DNA of 64,000 bases from an uncultured Bacilli bacterium. Its GTDB lineage: Bacteria > Bacillota_I > Bacilli_A > RF39 > UBA660. Below are positions 9,059-53,670 of this stretch, in pieces. Below the pieces are notes generated by a model. The model saw only the letters and a list, made by a program, of their open reading frames with translations. It had not been told where the DNA came from and ran no database searches. The stretch spans positions 157-64,156 of the forward strand of contig CANRHS010000001.1 in the NCBI GenBank assembly GCA_947630495.1. Reading direction: 5' to 3'. A program made the translations under genes and the position numbers. Each line of letters begins with the position of its first letter. The first letter of the stretch is position 1.

Positions 9059-9226
9059 AACTCACCGACACATATAAAATATATATCGACTAGCATTATA
9101 CCACAAATAGAGTAATTTGAACACATATTTTTAATATTTTTGCTTTAGTTTTAAAAAATAATCGTTATTTTCTTTATATTACTTAAATTTGATATAACAA
9201 ATAAGTTATGTTTAACCATCTAAAGT

Positions 9227-9255
9227 TTGACAACATGACTATTTCTTGCTATAAT
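9227..9255 (+). promoter_or_regulatory. Perfect sigma-A consensus promoter TTGACA-17-TATAAT for paralogue A
   Basis: ttgaca at 9227-9232 and tataat at 9250-9255, spacer exactly 17 nt. Followed by the palindrome ccaaattgg and RBS aggaaggaag. Confidence 0.6.
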
Positions 9256-9321
9256 ATGACCCAAATTGGTTTGAATTATTTATAAATAAAAATTTAAATT
9301 TATTAGGAAGGAAGAATTACT

Positions 9322-10317
9322 ATGTTATCATTATATCTAACAACGATTGGATTATCATTTAGTTTAAGTCTTATATCTGATTTAATTTTTGAGAAAAAAA
9401 TAAAAAAAGATGGATATAAATTTATAGAATTAAATAAATACAAATATATGAAAATTAAAGGAGGAGCATTACCTCTACCAATAGGATTACTTTGTCATGT
9501 ACTTCCACTTTGGAATCTAATGTGGTGTTTTGCTAATATATATTGTACATTTGATAATGATGCTTATAAAGATTGTTTAAATTCATTAATAGAAACAAAC
9601 TTTTTAGAGCCAATTAATCTTTCTAAAAAAGAAACAAAAGTTTTACCTAAAAAAGATAAAAGAATAAATAGAAATTCTAGGGATACCAAAGTTATGATAG
9701 AAATTGGCTATTTATTAGAATTAATTAAACAAGTAGATTTCAATTTATATGAAAATAAATATAAAGAATACCAGGATATGTTATTAGCAGGTACAAATGT
9801 TTTAACATTATCGAAAACTTCAGACTATGTATTTTTAGAAGAGTTTAAAATAGGACTTGAAGAAATTCTTGAAAAAGATAAAGATAAAATTACTTTAGGA
9901 AATTTTAAAAAAAGAAAGTTAGAATATGAAAGACATTTTCAAAAGCAAAATAGTAAAACTAAACTAACTTTTAATGACATAGAAAATATGGCTAAGAAGT
10001 ATTTACAAGAACGAAGAAATTATTCACCAAGTATTTATAATATGATTATAAATTATTTATCTTATTTTTATCTATATGAGTTATATGAGAATAGAGATTC
10101 TTTAAATATAGAGGAATTACGAAATACTGAATTTGAAAGAGTATTCTTATATGGGATTTTAAAAACTATAAAAGAATTACAAAGTAAGGGAATAATTGAA
10201 GATAATTTAGAGATTGATATGATTGAAGTTCCAACTCTAGAGAATGTAATTAAGGCTATTCAAGATATAAAAATAGTAAATATTGATAAACCAAAAACAA
10301 TGACTTTAAAGAATTAG
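9322..10317 (+). CDS. Two-TM membrane protein, paralogue A of a three-member family with a conserved roughly 200-aa C-terminal helical domain
   Basis: Two N-terminal hydrophobic helices. The C-terminal 230 aa is about 90% identical to paralogue B. Confidence 0.5.
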   Translation: MLSLYLTTIGLSFSLSLISDLIFEKKIKKDGYKFIELNKYKYMKIKGGALPLPIGLLCHVLPLWNLMWCFANIYCTFDNDAYKDCLNSLIETNFLEPINLSKKETKVLPKKDKRINRNSRDTKVMIEIGYLLELIKQVDFNLYENKYKEYQDMLLAGTNVLTLSKTSDYVFLEEFKIGLEEILEKDKDKITLGNFKKRKLEYERHFQKQNSKTKLTFNDIENMAKKYLQERRNYSPSIYNMIINYLSYFYLYELYENRDSLNIEELRNTEFERVFLYGILKTIKELQSKGIIEDNLEIDMIEVPTLENVIKAIQDIKIVNIDKPKTMTLKN

Positions 10318-10399
10318 AAATAGACGTAATAAAAACTAATAACTTTAAAAAGACTTTATGAATAAATAAATTTTGTAACCTTTTTTATTATACATTAGT

Positions 10400-10428
10400 T
10401 TGACAACATGACTATTTCTTGCTATAAT
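10400..10428 (+). promoter_or_regulatory. Perfect consensus promoter TTGACA-17-TATAAT for paralogue B, a duplicate of the 9227 promoter
   Basis: About 100 bp nearly identical to 9220-9321, including the ccaaattgg/cctaaattgg element and the RBS. Confidence 0.6.
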
Positions 10429-10491
10429 ATGACCTAAATTGGTTTGAATTACTTATGAATAAAGTAAATTTATTAGGAAGGAAGAATTATT

Positions 10492-11547
10492 ATGTTAAGT
10501 ACGTTTGAGTTAATATGGGTAATGCCACTTATTTTAAGTATAATATCTAATATCTTTTTAAAAAAGAAAATAGAAAGAGATGGCTATTTATTTATAAATG
10601 GATATAAATTTTTATCTAAAGAGAGTTTATTTTATGATATTGTAGTTGCTATAATTCCAATTTTAAATTGGGTTCCATGCATATTTTCATTATTAACTCT
10701 ATTTAGGAATAAAAGTTATAAAGAACACGTAAATACATTAGTAATAGATAAATCTCTACTGATAACTCAAAAAAAAGCAATGGAAATATTATCTAAACAA
10801 GATAAAAACTTAAAGTTAATTAATCCTTCAAAAATAGAAGTAAAAACATCACCTAAAAAAGAAATAAAAGTTTTGCCTAAGAAAGATAAAGGATTAAATA
10901 GAAATTCTAGAGATACTAAAGTTATGATAGAAATTGGTTATTTATTGGAATTAATTAAACAAGTAGATTTTAATTTATATGAAAAGAAATATAAAGAATA
11001 CCAGGATATGCTATTAGCAGGAACAAATGGTTTAACATTATCTAGAACTTCTGACTATGTATTTTTAGAAGAGTTTAAAATAAGTCTTGAAGAAATTCTT
11101 GAAAAAGATAAAGACAAAATTACTTTAGGAAATTTTCATAAAATAAAGTTAGAATATGAAAGACATTTTCAAGAGCAAAATAGTAAAACTAAATTAACTT
11201 TTAATGATATAGAAAATATGGTCAAGAAATATTTACAAGACCGAAAAAATTATTCACCAAATGTTTATAATATGATTATAAATTATTTATCATATTTTTA
11301 TCTATATGAATTATATGAGAATAGAAATTCTTTAAATATAGAGGAATTACGAAATACAGAATTTGAAAGAGTATTTTTATATGGGATTTTAAAAGTTATA
11401 AAAGAATTACAAAGTAAGGGAATAATTGAAGATAATTTAGATATTGATATGATTGAAGTTCCAACTCTAGAGAATGTAATTAAGGCTATTCAAGAAATAA
11501 AAATAGTAAATATTGATAGACCAAAAACTTTGACTTTAAAGAATTAG
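10492..11547 (+). CDS. Two-TM membrane protein, paralogue B
   Basis: Divergent N-terminal 120 aa. C-terminal 230 aa nearly identical to paralogue A. Confidence 0.5.
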   Translation: MLSTFELIWVMPLILSIISNIFLKKKIERDGYLFINGYKFLSKESLFYDIVVAIIPILNWVPCIFSLLTLFRNKSYKEHVNTLVIDKSLLITQKKAMEILSKQDKNLKLINPSKIEVKTSPKKEIKVLPKKDKGLNRNSRDTKVMIEIGYLLELIKQVDFNLYEKKYKEYQDMLLAGTNGLTLSRTSDYVFLEEFKISLEEILEKDKDKITLGNFHKIKLEYERHFQEQNSKTKLTFNDIENMVKKYLQDRKNYSPNVYNMIINYLSYFYLYELYENRNSLNIEELRNTEFERVFLYGILKVIKELQSKGIIEDNLDIDMIEVPTLENVIKAIQEIKIVNIDRPKTLTLKN

Positions 11548-11552
11548 AAATA

Positions 11553-11591
11553 TAAGTAATAATAAAGAATAGAGTTTTAAAGCCCTATTCT
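11553..11591. terminator. Bidirectional terminator between convergent genes
   Basis: aaagaatag-N12-ctattcttt hairpin with A/T runs on both sides. Confidence 0.45.
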
Positions 11592-11945
11592 TTATACTTC
11601 TTCTAAAAAAGGAAATTCTCTTTTATTATCTAAGTAATTAGCAATTTCTAAACTAACATTATAGTAATCAACAAACTTTTCATCATTACTATTTACTTTT
11701 AATACATTAATTAAATCATTATAAACTTTTTTAACAAATTCTTTATTATAACTCATAATTAACATTATATTATATAATCTTGTAAATACTATTTCTAAAG
11801 TAGGACTAGTAGATATTCTTCCTTCAAGCATTGCAATTTCTCTTGCTTCATCTAAACTTATCTCTGGATATTTAGAAACTATCTCTTTAGAAACTAAATC
11901 TACTCTTTTATCTTCTAATAGGTTTCCATTGTATTCATATCTCAT
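11592..11945 (-). CDS. Hypothetical 117-aa protein, co-operonic and immediately downstream of the ClpX-like ATPase
   Basis: Start lies 2 nt after the ClpX-like stop. No motif recognised. Confidence 0.4.
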   Translation of the reverse strand: MRYEYNGNLLEDKRVDLVSKEIVSKYPEISLDEAREIAMLEGRISTSPTLEIVFTRLYNIMLIMSYNKEFVKKVYNDLINVLKVNSNDEKFVDYYNVSLEIANYLDNKREFPFLEEV

Positions 11946-11946
11946 A

Positions 11947-13695
11947 TTATCGCCTTGCCTTTCTACTTGTCATATCTTGAAAGGTTTCTCGAACCATATC
12001 TGCGTCTATTTTAATAACCATATCTTGTCCTCGAAAGATTTCTTTTAAAAGTCTACTTCTTAAACTATTAACAACTGTTTGAAGACTTCTTGCTCCTGTA
12101 TTTAACTTATAAGCTTCCTCTGCCATTTCTAAATAGGCATCTTCTTCTATTTCAAGTTTCTTATTCCTTTTGGAAACAAAATCTATTAAACCTTTAATTG
12201 GACTTATTTCTGATTCTTTTAAAATTCTATATAAACTTTCTTTAGAATATTCTTCTGTATGAAGAAAAGTATTTAATCTACCAACCAATTCTCTTTCAAG
12301 ACCTAGATTTATTAAATCTTCTGATGTAATACTATAACTTTCTATATTGGCATTTTTGGCTTCGGCTCCAAATCCTAAACCAGGCCTAACTTCCGTTTTC
12401 TTTTCTCTTAAACTAGTTAAAGCACCAGCACAGATAAAAGTTAATTTAGAAGTATCAAAACTTATTTTTTGAAATTCATAGTTTTTTCCAAGTGTAATTT
12501 GATATTTACCTCCACCCATGAAATCTAAAAGACGATGTTGAATAGCTTGTTTCATAACTAAATCTCTACCTTGATCACTATTATAAGATATTTTCTCAAA
12601 CTCATCAAAAACAATTATTCCACGTTCTGCTTTCTCTAAATTTCTATTAGATTGTTCATATAATTCTTTTAAAATATCTTCTAAATCACCTCCAACATAA
12701 CCTGTAGCTGAGTAATTAGTAGAAGAAGTTCTAACAAAAGGAGCTCCAAATTTTTCAGTTATTTCTCGGGAAATCGCTGTTTTACCAGTTCCCGTTGGAC
12801 CATCTAAGAAAATAATCGATCTTTCTCCATCTTGAACTTTTCCTTCTCTTGCTAGCATTTGATTAGTTAACAGATTATAAAATAATTTTTCACAAACATC
12901 TTCTTGTCCAATAAACTTTGCCTTTATTTCATCAAGTAATTGCCAAAGTTGTTCTTCTTCAATTTTAACTTCTTGCGCTTGTTGTTTTGGTAATTCTCCA
13001 TAACGACGTTCCAACCAATCTTTATTTTCTTTATCTAATTCACTAATAGATTGGTCAATACTTTCTTTTTCTAGTCCTTTAATAAATTTATCAATATCAA
13101 TATTTTTTTTATTATCTATATCTATATATGGAAATCTTTCTAATTTTCTTTTATCTACTAACTTATTAATATCTTCATAACTTGGATGAGAGGTAAATTC
13201 TTTAATTCCAAGTTTGTCAAATGAAAAAATACTAAAAAACTTACTAAGATAAAGATATTGAAAAATCACTTCAGGACACATTTCAGGTTTAAAATTCGCA
13301 GTCTCCCAAAGTATTCCTGTCCTTAGAAGTATAGGTATAAAATGAATTCTATATATAGTTCTGTAATATTCATCTTTATCATTAGCCTCTCTGATACTAA
13401 ATTTTTCTACATCTTCCTTTTCTAAATGAAAAAATCTATATATTTTTTGTAGTTCTGGATATTTATCAAGTACATTTTTTATATTTCCTTCTAATTCTAA
13501 GCCTGCCAAAAATAAAGATAATTCCACTTTTTCATCATTATTAAGTGAATAATCAACAAATTCAAACTTTAAAACACCCCTATCTCTAGGTAATGCATAT
13601 TTAATATCTTTATCAACTAGATTATCAAAAATATCAATAGCCTTATTTATAAGTTTTCTAGTTTCTTCAGTTAACATACTATATTCTGTTTCCAT
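11947..13695 (-). CDS. ClpX-family AAA+ unfoldase paralogue; a novel roughly 250-aa N-terminal domain replaces the zinc-binding domain
   Basis: FLDGPTGTGKT (Walker A), GYVGGD (pore-1 GYVG loop), IVFDEFEKIS (Walker B), PGLGFGAE (IGF/LGF ClpP-docking loop), TGARSLQ (sensor-2). Probable ATG start at 13695 with RBS ggaaggaaagtgag. Confidence 0.7.
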   Translation of the reverse strand: METEYSMLTEETRKLINKAIDIFDNLVDKDIKYALPRDRGVLKFEFVDYSLNNDEKVELSLFLAGLELEGNIKNVLDKYPELQKIYRFFHLEKEDVEKFSIREANDKDEYYRTIYRIHFIPILLRTGILWETANFKPEMCPEVIFQYLYLSKFFSIFSFDKLGIKEFTSHPSYEDINKLVDKRKLERFPYIDIDNKKNIDIDKFIKGLEKESIDQSISELDKENKDWLERRYGELPKQQAQEVKIEEEQLWQLLDEIKAKFIGQEDVCEKLFYNLLTNQMLAREGKVQDGERSIIFLDGPTGTGKTAISREITEKFGAPFVRTSSTNYSATGYVGGDLEDILKELYEQSNRNLEKAERGIIVFDEFEKISYNSDQGRDLVMKQAIQHRLLDFMGGGKYQITLGKNYEFQKISFDTSKLTFICAGALTSLREKKTEVRPGLGFGAEAKNANIESYSITSEDLINLGLERELVGRLNTFLHTEEYSKESLYRILKESEISPIKGLIDFVSKRNKKLEIEEDAYLEMAEEAYKLNTGARSLQTVVNSLRSRLLKEIFRGQDMVIKIDADMVRETFQDMTSRKARR

Positions 13696-13850
13696 AAATC
13701 TCACTTTCCTTCCACTTTGTTCAAGACATATATAGTCAAATCTACTATTATATTACAAAAAAATTATAGCAAAAAATAAGTATATTTACAATAATTTTAA
13801 GGAAAATAATCACAACTTTTTTATTTTAACATGCAAAGTATGGGTTAACC

Positions 13851-13879
13851 TTGACAATGCAATAAATTTATACTATAAT
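13851..13879 (+). promoter_or_regulatory. Perfect consensus promoter TTGACA-17-TATAAT for paralogue C
   Basis: ttgaca at 13851-13856, tataat at 13874-13879, 17-nt spacer. Confidence 0.55.
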
Positions 13880-13924
13880 AGGCAACTAGAAAAAGGGATT
13901 ATGTTTATTAAAGGGGGAGTTTAA

Positions 13925-15595
13925 ATGATTTCTACTTCATTATTAACTATTGTTTTTAGTTTTGTTTTAGCTATCCATGGTTCTTATTACTTTACAAGTT
14001 TATATTGTAAATCATATAAGAAATTTCTTAGGAAAAAACTTCGTAAATTAAATTATAAAATTGAATTTGGTATAGATAACATTCCTAATCTTGATGAAGA
14101 AGCAATTACCATGATTCCTTTGGTTAATGCTATTTATGTTTTAATAAAATATAGTCCTTTAAATACGAAAAGAATAATTAAAGAACTTAAGAAAAAAGAT
14201 ATGCTTATTCCAATTCATAAAAAGAAAATTTCAAAAGATAAACAAGAACTAAAAGAAGTAACTAAAAAAGAGCAAATAGATAATAGTAATTTATTAAGAG
14301 AAAAAGTTAAAGAACAAGTAAAATTAACTAAAGAATTAAATAATAGTGATGTTGCTTTAGTATTAAAAATACAAACCTTATTAGTAAAACTTAAAACATT
14401 AAATCCTAAAAGTTATGATTTATTAAGTAAAGAATATGAACAATTAGCAAGAGAAGATAAACTTAATAGTTTTATGTTAAAAGATTTTTTAGCAAGAATT
14501 TTAGTATCATTAGAATACGATATAAGAGATGGAAGTGCCCTTATTAATTATTTAGATTTTTTAATAACAATAACTGAAAAAAGAATTCTAATGAATAGTC
14601 AACAAGATGAAAAGTTCTCTTTTCAAGAACTTGAACAATTAACTAAAGAAATTATAAATAATAGTAATATATATAGTAATGAAGATAAAATAGTTATTTA
14701 TAAAAAGATTTCTCTTTTATATTTATACTTAATATATGAAAGTAAATATATAAATATAGATGAAGTTAGAGATAGTTGTTTTAACTATGAGGCCTTATTA
14801 TATGCTACTATTTTAAATATAGTTGAGTTAAATGAAAGAAATGTAATCGAAAGTAATTTAGCATTTGATATAAATGAAAATTATAGTTTAGAAAGTATAG
14901 TAAAATTAATAAAAGAAATAAAATTCATAAAAAAAGAAACTGAAGAAGTTACTCTAAAAGAACAAATAAAAATAGATAGCAGTGATACAACTTTAGTATT
15001 AAAAATACAAACCTTATTAGTAAAACTTAAAACATTAAATTCTAAAAGTTATGAAACATTAAATAAGGAATATGAAGTCTTAGCAAAAGAAGGCAAACTT
15101 AATAATCTTATGTTAAAAGACTTTTTAGCAAGAATCTTATCAGTTATAGAATATGAAGAAAATAATATAAGTTCTATCATTGATTATTTAGATGTTTGGA
15201 TAGATACTTATGAACAAAAATTTCGAATGGATATGCAAGTAACAAAAAGTCTTACTTTTAAAGAACTTGAACATTTAACTAAAGAGATTATAAATAATAA
15301 AACCTATAGTAATGAAGATAAAGTAGTTATTTATAAAAAGATTTCTCTTTTATACTTATATTTAATATATGAAAATAAATATATAAATATTGCTGTTCTT
15401 AGAGATAGTTGTTTTAACTATGATGCTTTATTATATGCTGCTATTTTAAATATAGTTGAGTTAAAGAAAAGAAATGTAATTGAAGATAATTTAGCATTTG
15501 ATATAAATGAAAAATATGATTTAGAAAGTGTAGTAAGATTAATTACTGAAATAAAGTTTATAAGGAATAAACAATTTGTAAAAAATAATAGTTGA
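13925..15595 (+). CDS. Two-TM membrane protein, paralogue C, carrying two tandem copies of the family's roughly 200-aa domain
   Basis: Internal duplication: aa ~120-335 and ~335-550 both contain TLVLKIQTLLVKLKTLN...KDFLARIL...YKKISLLYLYLIYE...NVIE.NLAFDINE. Several 60-80-bp DNA stretches are near-identical, e.g. 14350-14410 vs 14990-15050. Confidence 0.5.
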   Translation: MISTSLLTIVFSFVLAIHGSYYFTSLYCKSYKKFLRKKLRKLNYKIEFGIDNIPNLDEEAITMIPLVNAIYVLIKYSPLNTKRIIKELKKKDMLIPIHKKKISKDKQELKEVTKKEQIDNSNLLREKVKEQVKLTKELNNSDVALVLKIQTLLVKLKTLNPKSYDLLSKEYEQLAREDKLNSFMLKDFLARILVSLEYDIRDGSALINYLDFLITITEKRILMNSQQDEKFSFQELEQLTKEIINNSNIYSNEDKIVIYKKISLLYLYLIYESKYINIDEVRDSCFNYEALLYATILNIVELNERNVIESNLAFDINENYSLESIVKLIKEIKFIKKETEEVTLKEQIKIDSSDTTLVLKIQTLLVKLKTLNSKSYETLNKEYEVLAKEGKLNNLMLKDFLARILSVIEYEENNISSIIDYLDVWIDTYEQKFRMDMQVTKSLTFKELEHLTKEIINNKTYSNEDKVVIYKKISLLYLYLIYENKYINIAVLRDSCFNYDALLYAAILNIVELKKRNVIEDNLAFDINEKYDLESVVRLITEIKFIRNKQFVKNNS

Positions 15596-15790
15596 CCCCA
15601 GGAGCAAGGGAATTCTAAATATAATAACTATATCTACTCTCTTTGAGAACCCAGCTTTGATCCTTCACAAGTCAACTAAGTAATATTATTATATAACAAA
15701 AATATACATTTGTCAAAATTAGAAATTTATAGAAAATTTGTAAAAGTAATAAAAATATAGTATAATATTAGTAAAGAAAGGAGAAACAGA

Positions 15791-16261
15791 ATGATAGATG
15801 ATATTAATAAGAGCATTTATGAATATGCAAGAGACATTGACAAGCAAACCAGACTTTTATCATTTTTAGATGTTTATAGAATTTTATTAAAAGATTTAAA
15901 TTGTATTGTTTGTATGGAAAGTGCTGCTGATTTACTAGGTTATTCAAATGGTGGTTTTAGACACCAGATTTATGTTTACTCATTAGTTGACTTTAATAAG
16001 CCTTACATAAAATGTTTTATAGTAAAAGATTTAAATAATATTCCATTTATAGATAGAAAAGGAATTAAAGTTTCTCCTATTGAAATTGCAATTAAAGATA
16101 TGTTAGAAAAAAAGGAAACTGACCCTCAAATTTTATATGAAACATTTGCTAATTACTACTTTGATAATAACAAATCATATAAAGGATTAGAATTACCAAA
16201 AAGATTATCTTTAAAAGCAAAACATTTCAAAGAGGAAGGAGCTTTATATTATGAGCAATGA
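15791..16261 (+). CDS. Hypothetical protein
   Basis: 156-aa ORF with an RBS aaggag; no motifs recognised. Confidence 0.35.
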   Translation: MIDDINKSIYEYARDIDKQTRLLSFLDVYRILLKDLNCIVCMESAADLLGYSNGGFRHQIYVYSLVDFNKPYIKCFIVKDLNNIPFIDRKGIKVSPIEIAIKDMLEKKETDPQILYETFANYYFDNNKSYKGLELPKRLSLKAKHFKEEGALYYEQ

Positions 16262-51603: not shown

Positions 51604-53670
51604 TTACTTTTTTATCTTAATTGTAATTTGATAGTAATCGTCAAACTCTATTTCTTCTGTATCAATACTTATATTATTTTGTTTAATAGCATCTGTTGTT
51701 TTCTTTAATTCATAAACAGCACCTCTAGCATCAAAAATCGTTTTAACTGGTTCAAGAACAATATAATCATTCTTTTTTTCTTGTTTAGTATCTGAAGTTG
51801 TTTCTTCTTTTTCCTCTTTTTCTTCTTGTGCACCTGTTGGCTCTGCTCCAATTACTTCTACTTCTTCAACTTCTTCCTTTGGCATTTCTTCTTGTTCTTC
51901 TTCATGTTTTTCAGGTTGTTCAGTTGGTTCTTCTTTTTGAATTTCCTCTTTTTCTTCTTTAACTGAAACTGGTTTAGCATTTAAAATATCTTCATAAGGA
52001 TCATCAAATGGATTATCAAATTTTTCATTATTTTCCTGATTTAATTCTTGATAATTATCATCAAACCTAGGCTCATTTCTAGGTGGTCTATTATCATTCA
52101 TATTGTAATCATTCATCTGATTATTATCAGGAACATTTACTATATTTAATGGTTGGTTAAATAATCCACCTTGGTTAGCATTAAAATCAATAGGGGACAT
52201 ATCATTATTATTTTGTTTAGGGAATGAAAAATCATCTATTGGATTATTAAAGTTATTCATATTTCCCATATTATTTATATTATTATTCATGTTGCCCATA
52301 TTATCATTCATATTATTCATATTAAAGTTATTGTTAGGATTTGGATTAAAATTATTATTATTGTTTTGATTTATAAAATTATTCATTCCAAAATCTTGCT
52401 CTTGTTCAAAATTATTCATACTATTATCTTCAAAAGAGTTTTGATTGTTATCAAAGTTATTTGGTGTATCAAAATTTGGTAAGAATTGATTTTCTTTAGG
52501 TTTTATAGCATTTTCTCTTATCTGACTTACAAATGGATTATCTCCTTCATTGGCGTTATAATTTGGATTATTATTAGAATTATTAATATTTGGAGCTCCA
52601 TCAAACATAGATCCTAGAGAACTAAAGTTATTATTAGAATTCATTTGTGAATTATTATTTCCCTGAGGCATTGCAAATCCTGGAGTATCTTTAAAATCTC
52701 CATAGTCAATACCTTGATTAGGTTCATTATTTGAATTTTGATTATCATTATAAACTGAGGAATCATTAAAATCATTGGAAAAATTATTTCCAAAGGTTGG
52801 ATTGTTAGGCATATTACTTGGATTTTGGTTATTAAAATTAGGAATATTATTAAACATACCTCCATTTATAGAACTTTGATAGTCATTTAAACCCATACCT
52901 CCAAAGTTACCATGAAAACTAGGCATATTATTTTGTCTGCTATTTTGTTGTCCGAAGTTATTCATTGGCATATCATTATTCATATTAAAATTATTTGAAT
53001 TTTGATTATTCATCATATTATTATTCATATCACTTTCTCCTTCATCCATATTATTACTAGATTCTTCTTTTAATTTTTTAATTTCGGCATCTAACTCTCT
53101 AACTGTTAATCTTTCATTTCTAATTCTATCTAACATCATTAATTGTTGCTCTTTATCTTTCAAATTTAGTAGGCTTCTTGCATGACGTTCAGAAATTTGA
53201 TTTTTCATTAGGGCATCTTGAACTTCTTCAGGTAATCCTAAAAGCCTTAATTTATTAGCAATAGCCGGTTGACTTCTTCCCATGGTTTTGGCTAGACTTT
53301 CTTGAGTCATATTATCGAGTTCAAGAATTCTTTTGTAAGTTCTTGCTTCTTCAATTGCACTTAAATTTTTTCTTTGCAAATTTTCAAGGAGTGATACTTT
53401 GGCACTTTCCCGATCATCCATCTCCCTAATAATAGCAGGAACTGTTGTTAATCCTGCTAAAGATGATGCTTTACATCTTCTTTCCCCAGCAATAAGTTCG
53501 TATTTTCCATTTTTTGGTCGTACTAAAATTGGCTGAAGTACTCCGTGTTCTTTAATCGAATCTGATAATTCTTCTAATCCTGTTTCATCAAATTCTTCTC
53601 GAGGTTGAAATCTATTTGGCATAATATCTTCTATTTTTAAATAGACAACCTCATTTTCTTTATTATCCAT
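51604..53670 (-). CDS. noc: Noc/ParB-like nucleoid-occlusion protein with a roughly 320-aa N/Q/M-rich low-complexity insertion
   Basis: N-terminal ParB box (LSDSIKEHGVLQPILVRP, GERRCKAS) and HTH, then roughly 320 aa dominated by N, Q, M, F and G, then a Glu/Lys-rich linker and a C-terminal domain. Confidence 0.75.
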   Translation of the reverse strand: MDNKENEVVYLKIEDIMPNRFQPREEFDETGLEELSDSIKEHGVLQPILVRPKNGKYELIAGERRCKASSLAGLTTVPAIIREMDDRESAKVSLLENLQRKNLSAIEEARTYKRILELDNMTQESLAKTMGRSQPAIANKLRLLGLPEEVQDALMKNQISERHARSLLNLKDKEQQLMMLDRIRNERLTVRELDAEIKKLKEESSNNMDEGESDMNNNMMNNQNSNNFNMNNDMPMNNFGQQNSRQNNMPSFHGNFGGMGLNDYQSSINGGMFNNIPNFNNQNPSNMPNNPTFGNNFSNDFNDSSVYNDNQNSNNEPNQGIDYGDFKDTPGFAMPQGNNNSQMNSNNNFSSLGSMFDGAPNINNSNNNPNYNANEGDNPFVSQIRENAIKPKENQFLPNFDTPNNFDNNQNSFEDNSMNNFEQEQDFGMNNFINQNNNNNFNPNPNNNFNMNNMNDNMGNMNNNINNMGNMNNFNNPIDDFSFPKQNNNDMSPIDFNANQGGLFNQPLNIVNVPDNNQMNDYNMNDNRPPRNEPRFDDNYQELNQENNEKFDNPFDDPYEDILNAKPVSVKEEKEEIQKEEPTEQPEKHEEEQEEMPKEEVEEVEVIGAEPTGAQEEKEEKEETTSDTKQEKKNDYIVLEPVKTIFDARGAVYELKKTTDAIKQNNISIDTEEIEFDDYYQITIKIKK

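Follow-up and report, generated by a model that had tools for sequence, protein, structure and literature searches.

Clp unfoldases choose the proteins that are destroyed, and their N-domains and adaptors set the specificity of that choice. ClpX, the closest described relative of the protein considered here, carries a C4 zinc domain in front of a single class-II AAA+ module. ClpE, a class-I Hsp100 protein with a ClpX-like zinc-finger N-domain, is a precedent for the swapping of N-domains among unfoldases of the ClpX and ClpA/B/C types. Here, we analyze a ClpX-like gene and a gene for a 117-amino-acid (aa) partner that lie, together with three flanking paralogues (g1 to g3), in a stretch of 64,000 nucleotides (nt) from an uncultured Bacilli bacterium (GenBank assembly GCA_947630495.1, contig CANRHS010000001.1), referred to below as the window. 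All the features listed in a first-pass annotation of the window, namely, the open reading frames (ORFs), the ClpX motifs, the abutting small gene, the paralogues, and the promoters, were located as described there. On balance, we lean toward the view that the two-gene operon encodes a ClpP-dependent, ClpX-derived unfoldase and its dedicated 117-aa cofactor and that the g genes are a separate family, adjacent to the operon only in this species.

A ClpX-type AAA+ module behind a different N-terminal region

The C-terminal part of the 582-aa protein was compared with ClpX at the levels of profile, structure, and individual residues. The ClpX model NF003745 matches aa ~250 to 578 (162 bits; E 2e-47), solved ClpX structures match the same region at E 9e-37, and ~300 residues align to ClpX with ~30% identity. 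In the alignment, GPTGTGKT corresponds to Walker A, GYVGG to the pore-1 loop, VFDEFEK to Walker B, and LVGRLN to the Arg finger, and the residue-by-residue comparison with ClpX structures places GLGFGAE at the IGF loop and TGARSLQ at sensor-2. All the motifs from which the first-pass annotation had recognized a ClpX-type unfoldase (Walker A, pore-1, Walker B, the LGFGAE loop, and sensor-2) thus align to ClpX. There is a single AAA+ module in the protein and not the two in tandem that characterize class-I Hsp100 proteins (ClpA/B/C/E).

A search of 5.8 billion protein clusters with the ATPase yielded 1705 matches, and the conservation of the motifs was counted among the best 120 of these. The matches extend over 98 to 100% of the sequence, N-domain included, in 118 of the 120 and are typically ~560 aa long and ~43% identical. 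Walker A K305, pore-1 Y333, Walker B D364 and E365, the Arg finger R473, and the loop residues G441 and F442 are invariant, and the sensor-2 residue R536 is kept in 119 relatives. Position 440 is occupied by I (106 relatives), L (7), M (5), or V (2), such that the signature [ILMV]-G-F is found in 120/120. Conversely, the RKH loop is replaced (GKNYE versus GRKHP in ClpX), and the curated ClpX equivalog cut-offs (TIGR00382 / NF003745) are missed, the scores being less than half of those required (162 versus 359 bits and 146.6 versus 370.75). Because of these low scores, the protein is considered a paralogue rather than an orthologue of ClpX; the only name attached to the family in any source is “AAA family ATPase.” Judged by its sequence, the product is a genuine ClpX-type unfoldase that lacks the zinc-binding domain.

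What precedes the AAA+ module differs from ClpX. Searches of Pfam, NCBIfam, and PDB sequences with residues 1 to 250 gave no match, in agreement with the first-pass description of ~250 aa without recognizable similarity in place of the zinc-binding N terminus. The C4 domain is missing: ClpX models match only from aa ~249, the N-domain models as helical, and an approximate Bacillus subtilis ClpX query aligns with the window gene from residue 75 onward, its own N terminus remaining unmatched. An AlphaFold model built from 21 diverse N-regions is confident over most of aa 1 to 190 and disordered over 190 to 250, where a variable linker of ~60 residues (aa ~191 to 250) leads to the AAA+ module. 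The modeled arrangement of helices, in which a beta-hairpin insertion follows helix 1, resembles Clp N-domains. Other methods do not corroborate this assignment: a Foldseek search with the model found nothing (best E 0.2), Pfam Clp_N (PF02861) matched neither the window protein nor 21 family members even at E values up to 10, a PDB profile search returned no Clp proteins, and hhalign against three Clp N-domains (approximate sequences) gave a probability of 0.1. Because all four comparisons were negative, a Clp-N-like fold is rated as probable, not as established.

The ATPase gene and its small partner in uncultured Bacilli

The stop codon of the ATPase gene and the start codon of the small gene are separated by 1 nt (TAA-T-ATG), a junction that marks the small gene as translationally coupled to the ATPase gene. 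This arrangement is widely kept. The small gene lies directly downstream of the ATPase gene in 46 of 52 species-level loci, usually at a distance of 1 to 4 nt; in two of the six loci without it, the ATPase gene is an additional copy, and the genome has an intact pair as well. The first-pass proposal of a two-gene operon with the 117-aa protein is borne out by these data. Clustering of the neighboring ORFs in 40 loci detected, besides the small gene, no gene family common to more than five loci; because these 40 loci had been preselected for the small gene, the 46/52 figure is the one relied on for co-occurrence. When a single genome for each GTDB species was scanned, the family was present in >50 species, all of them represented by uncultured gut metagenome-assembled genomes, with the host labels Bacilli, Tenericutes, Mollicutes, Erysipelotrichaceae, “Candidatus Aphodocola,” and “Candidatus Onthousia” (the last two classified by NCBI as Bacilli incertae sedis). 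Gene order and spacing across these hosts indicate that the ATPase gene and the 117-aa gene are a conserved, dedicated two-gene operon of uncultured low-GC gut Bacilli. The surroundings of the pair vary and include, for example, dnaJ and ftsK in one context, heavy-metal ATPases with an ISL3 element and a serine recombinase in another, and Fic, Bro-N, and radical-SAM genes in yet others.

The partner is the more conserved of the two proteins. In the closest relative (locus L001), it is 81% identical, versus 56% for the ATPase, and elsewhere the respective values are ~45 to 60% versus 37 to 45%. The partner family consists of 65 database clusters, none of which is informatively named or contains a Pfam domain. 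The AlphaFold2 model of the partner is a five-helix bundle (predicted local distance difference test score, 88.8) in which residues 1 to 7 are disordered. The most conserved stretch, aa 1 to 10, includes this disordered segment, with the N-terminal peptide M-x-Y-E-Y-N-G-N-L-L-E; an N terminus that is conserved yet modeled as disordered is typical of a docking peptide.

A sister subfamily of the ATPase bears on the question of which part of the unfoldase the partner serves. Its N-region is unrelated to that of the window family by hhalign, yet it is accompanied by a distantly homologous small protein that has kept the N-terminal motif, encoded 1 nt downstream in four loci (L066, L072, L074, and L077), with a 4-nt overlap in L070, and at 8 nt in L091. 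Because the partner homologue is kept with a different N-region, the partner is tied to the AAA+ core rather than to the Clp-N-like domain and probably contacts the AAA+ body.

The same uncultured Bacilli encode at least three further ClpX-like subfamilies of 406 to 734 aa with unrelated N-terminal regions and no zinc ribbon (loci L065-L068, L070, L072, L074, L076, L077, L080, L082-L085, L088, L090, and L091). The xGF loop is present in nearly all of them and missing in L070; in L042, two ClpX-like genes are arranged in tandem.

The pair is described in none of Pfam, NCBIfam, PADLOC, PDB, and the searched literature, and nothing specific was found in the literature on ClpX-like proteins in these lineages or in defense. 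Two assignments were considered and rejected. Membership in a known defense system was discarded given that PADLOC yields generic P-loop matches only, and a phage origin, raised by a match of PHROG 4339 to the AAA+ part, was discarded given that phage genomes and IMG/VR hold only AAA+-level relatives that are ~30% identical and lack the N-domain. Regulation by CtsR was rejected as well: the CtsR-like box upstream of the ATPase gene, AGACATATATAGTCAAA (13724-13740; 2 mismatches), is the sole such site in the window and likely a chance match, and among 42 upstream regions of homologues it recurs only in the sister-strain copy (L111).

The flanking g genes, their promoters, and the window

The features of the locus are listed in Table 1.

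Table 1. Genes, protein domains, putative promoters, and hairpin at the ClpX-like locus (window coordinates)
Feature	Coordinates	Strand	Description
Promoter of g1	9227..9255	+	Exact TTGACA-17-TATAAT, TG-extended; upstream of g1
g1	9322-10317	+	331 aa; two hydrophobic N-terminal segments, then ~210-aa C-terminal domain
Promoter of g2	10400..10428	+	Exact TTGACA-17-TATAAT; upstream of g2; 29-mer identical to the g1 copy
g2	10492-11547	+	351 aa; tandem duplicate of g1
Hairpin	11562..11595	.	Between convergent g2 and small gene; 13 pairs, terminator-like
Small partner gene	11592-11945	-	117 aa
ClpX-like gene	11947-13695	-	582 aa counted from ATG; alternative GTG start at 13704 also open
ClpX-type AAA+ module	11947..12945	-	aa ~250-582; LGF (aa 440-442) aligned with the ClpP-docking IGF loop of ClpX
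N-domain	13126..13695	-	aa 1-190; predicted 4+4 helices plus inserted beta-hairpin; model resembles a double Clp-N repeat
Putative promoter of the ClpX-like operon	13763..13791	-	TTGTAA-17-TATAAT with TG extension; 10/12 consensus positions
Promoter of g3	13851..13879	+	Exact TTGACA-17-TATAAT; upstream of g3
g3	13925-15595	+	556 aa; C-domain twice, aa ~137-340 and ~345-556
Fourth exact promoter site	15688..15716	-	Exact TTGACA-17-TATAAT; points into the 3' end of g3; overlooked in the first-pass annotation

The products of g1 and g2 are 68% identical overall and ~92% identical in the C-terminal domain, and two regions of g3 match the domain of g2 (~30% identity; E 1e-14 and 4e-13). Each of the three proteins has two N-terminal hydrophobic segments, the second of which is weak in g3. 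The earlier description of three paralogues that share a C-terminal domain and two N-terminal transmembrane (TM) segments, with the domain doubled in g3, is therefore accurate. It is the role ascribed to them, that of membrane-anchored adaptors or substrates in an unfoldase/protease module, that does not hold: g-family genes are missing from every one of the 79 genome loci in which ATPase homologues lie, so that of the gene set whose synteny the annotation had raised, the ATPase and its 117-aa partner are conserved together and the paralogues are not. The cluster as a whole is not conserved as a unit in relatives, an outcome that the annotation itself had set against its proposal. The two-TM form of the g family comprises only five protein clusters among the 5.8 billion, all at least 68% identical, and in related metagenome contigs the g orthologues occupy unrelated contexts: beside coaE, coaD, and a metallo-beta-lactamase gene; beside an IS30-type transposase; or in tandem after rplA-rplJ-rplL. 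The window arrangement is kept only in a near-identical strain (98% DNA identity). The profile of the ~210-aa g-domain identified 127 representative relatives, mostly soluble proteins of 410 to 520 aa with the domain at the C terminus, for which Pfam and PDB gave no matches; hhalign probabilities of ~0.1 led to the rejection of any link between this domain and either the partner or the N-domain. The distribution of these genes indicates that they are a separate, dispersed, clade-restricted family with its own strong promoter cassette, neighbors of the ATPase operon and not parts of a module with it.

Two further observations concern the g-domain. In the 98%-identical strain (L111 111-1526; protein P0191), the C-terminal part of hsdS, a type I restriction S subunit (Methylase_S), takes the place of the second g3 repeat, as a result of either recombination or chimeric assembly. 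In addition, 26 of 61 soluble g-domain proteins start with M-x-K-Y-Y-K-G-x-L, in the same register as the M-x-Y-E-Y-N-G-N-L of the partner (window positions 11919-11945), the shared positions being Tyr5, Asn/Lys6, Gly7, and Leu9; hhalign aligns the two families only there and not significantly. This likeness may be a coincidence or a shared N-terminal tag.

The exact sequence TTGACA-N17-TATAAT occurs at four sites in the 64-kb window, all in the g/ClpX-like region, versus 0.04 expected. Thus, the consensus sites reported in the first-pass annotation are real, and there are four rather than three of them; all four follow the pattern of Sigma-70/SigA-type promoters (TTGACA, 17 nt, TATAAT) and are promoter candidates on that basis. 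Their association with the ClpX module was not upheld. The g1 and g2 sites are not independent because their identical 29-mers stem from the g1/g2 tandem duplication. Furthermore, the cassette of promoter and 5' untranslated region (9223-9321 and 10396-10491) repeats in related contigs (L005-L012) with hexamers and spacer conserved. Because the cassette travels with the g genes elsewhere, the promoter cluster is a property of the g family, not of the ClpX module. The g family is probably highly expressed. The same cassette also precedes an unrelated LRR_5 gene (L007 3236-3264), and several contigs end ~130 bp upstream of the cassette-bearing gene, as expected for a multicopy sequence. The −35 to −10 stretch of the putative ClpX-like operon promoter is 87% identical in L001. 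The hairpin between the two convergent units is probably a shared terminator of g2 and the small gene.

In the stretch 15585-15716 (-), the fourth exact promoter site points away from the 156-aa ORF located at 15791-16261 (+), and no plausible ORF of ≥20 aa lies downstream of it. The ~95 nt that follow are GC-richer than their surroundings and could form a long-range stem (AGUUGAC...GUCAACU) before a U-run; the 98 nt downstream of the site gave no Rfam match and fold no better than shuffled sequences (z-score, −0.96). A small or antisense RNA may be produced from this site.

The window as a whole represents a low-GC chromosome (~27% GC) of a Firmicute-like organism near the replication origin, with prfA, prmC, RpoE-like, PBP1A-like, L10 leader, leuS, mnmG, and noc/parB among its genes. 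At 27% GC, the ATPase gene does not differ from the genome background, and the g genes have a lower GC content (21 to 22%). The 156-aa ORF, located between g3 and the PBP1A-like gene, comes with a TTGTAA-17-TATAAT site of its own; searches of Pfam, NCBIfam, and PHROG with it were negative, PADLOC gave a weak match to DrmC (E 0.009), and no homologues were found in the fetched loci. The first ~213 residues of a 688-aa protein (51604-53670, -) match Noc/ParB (TIGR04285; 283 bits against a cut-off of 315 bits), and ~470 more residues follow the matched part.

Proposed mode of action and comparison with known Clp systems

Under the reading that we favor, the first gene of the operon would encode a hexameric ClpX-derived AAA+ unfoldase with intact pore loops, ATPase site, and IGF-type loop, in which a divergent domain, similar to a Clp/Hsp100 N-domain in its model, stands in place of the zinc-binding N-domain. 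The ATPase would dock on ClpP via the [I/L]GF loop and feed unfolded substrates into it, and the N-domain would add substrate or adaptor selection as a second layer of specificity. The partner would engage the conserved AAA+ body, probably via its disordered N-terminal peptide, and would thereby deliver or gate substrates as an obligate cofactor, either an adaptor or a regulator.

The main uncertainty of this mechanism is the presence of ClpP in the hosts, and several observations weigh against the mechanism. A tblastn search with an approximate ClpP query found no ClpP in the 64-kb window or in ~1 Mb of homologous loci. The hosts are Bacilli related to the Mollicutes, from which ClpP is absent according to reviews (PMC8138137, PMC6600665). 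The all-helical partner has no sequence or fold similarity to ClpS, SspB, or MecA and so resembles no known adaptor, and the variable genomic context, sometimes beside recombinases, insertion sequence (IS) elements, or a relaxase-like gene, is also the pattern of an accessory or mobile module. The window organism is itself not a classical wall-less Mollicute, given that it has a PBP1A-like peptidoglycan gene.

Three alternatives were weighed against these data. The pair could be a ClpP-independent remodeling chaperone whose xGF loop docks on a non-ClpP partner, an explanation that we regard as unlikely. ClpX homologues can act without ClpP, as is the case for mitochondrial ClpX and ALAS, and both the reported lack of ClpP in the related Mollicutes and the failure of the approximate query to find clpP in any of the fetched sequences point in this direction. 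However, the [ILMV]-G-F motif that persists in all 120 examined members and in nearly all the paralogous subfamilies is the ClpP-docking signature, ClpP-less ClpX homologues tend to lose the IGF loop, and the PBP1A-like gene separates the host from the classical Mollicutes. It is similarly improbable, in our estimate, that the pair is an accessory, horizontally mobile system of the anti-phage defense or addiction type, in which the small protein would be the sensor or restraint and the unfoldase the executor. The two genes are a self-contained unit whose context changes, its neighbors at some loci being a serine recombinase, a relaxase-like gene, an ISL3 transposase, Fic, Bro-N, a Schlafen-type ATPase, or HipA; paralogous ClpX-like ATPases with swapped N-regions have radiated in the same lineages; and an hsdS fragment abuts the locus in the sister strain. 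Nevertheless, the generic AAA+ hits in PADLOC peak at DolB (6e-9, over the P-loop) and leave the partner and g1 to g3 unmatched, an effector domain is found in neither gene, phage collections hold the AAA+ part alone and not the full-length family, and the GC content of the ATPase gene is that of the genome.

The third alternative, a single module in which the three two-TM paralogues are the membrane-anchored adaptors or substrates of the ClpX-like operon, is highly improbable. The genes are adjacent, in convergent and divergent orientation, with a strong promoter on every unit, the near-identical strain keeps the arrangement, and the N termini of the soluble g-domain proteins are in register with that of the partner, a weak lead given the nonsignificant alignment. 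Against this stand the absence of the g family from all 79 ATPase-homologue loci and its unrelated contexts in relatives, the restriction of the two-TM form to five clusters when the ATPase and its partner are found together across many species, and the lack of profile similarity between the g-domain and either the partner or the N-domain. Comparative evidence therefore indicates that the locus is not an integrated “unfoldase plus membrane adaptors” system, and the promoter cluster and the paralogous membrane proteins, being a separate clade-specific family and not a protease system, constitute a useful negative result.

A more far-reaching reading goes beyond the favored one. In these hosts, canonical ClpX might have been replaced by a radiation of ClpX-derived unfoldases with interchangeable N-domains and a dedicated small helical cofactor, and should the hosts lack ClpP, the strictly conserved IGF-type loop would serve to dock a protein other than ClpP; we consider this rather doubtful. 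No canonical ClpX or ClpP was found beside the paralogues in 91 loci, where no sequence is more than 35% identical to B. subtilis ClpX (approximate queries). In addition, the N-terminal Y-[NK]-G-x-L peptide, which the cofactor has in common with many of the soluble g-domain proteins, may be a tag that this unfoldase recognizes.

The locus defines a large unnamed family in abundant uncultured gut Bacilli. If the family is ClpP dependent, it would be a new solution to regulated proteolysis that combines an adaptor with an N-domain. If ClpP is missing, as it is in Mollicutes, the purpose of the IGF loop comes into question, and docking on a non-ClpP partner would be a new mode of action for ClpX-type proteins.

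Compared with known systems, the window protein shares with ClpX the single class-II AAA+ module, the GYVG pore-1 loop, Walker A and B, the Arg finger, the sensor-2 GAR, and the IGF-type loop. It differs in the ~190-aa helical N-domain and ~60-aa linker that stand in place of the C4 zinc domain, in the loss of the RKH loop, in profile scores under half of the cut-offs, and in the dedicated partner gene downstream. ClpV, which recognizes an N-terminal peptide of VipB/TssC, is a two-ring, ClpP-independent protein that disassembles type VI secretion sheaths, genes for which are not present here. In ClpA-ClpS, ClpC-MecA, and ClpC-MdfA, the adaptors bind the N-domain, whereas the partner described here probably contacts the AAA+ body. 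Finally, ClpE has two AAA+ modules and a zinc finger, whereas the window protein has one ClpX-type module and a domain modeled as Clp-N-like. If that fold is correct, the architecture, a Clp-N-type N-domain on a ClpX-type single ring, would be the reciprocal of the swap seen in ClpE, and the family would join a ClpX-type motor, an apparent ClpA/B/C-type N-domain, and a highly conserved small cofactor.

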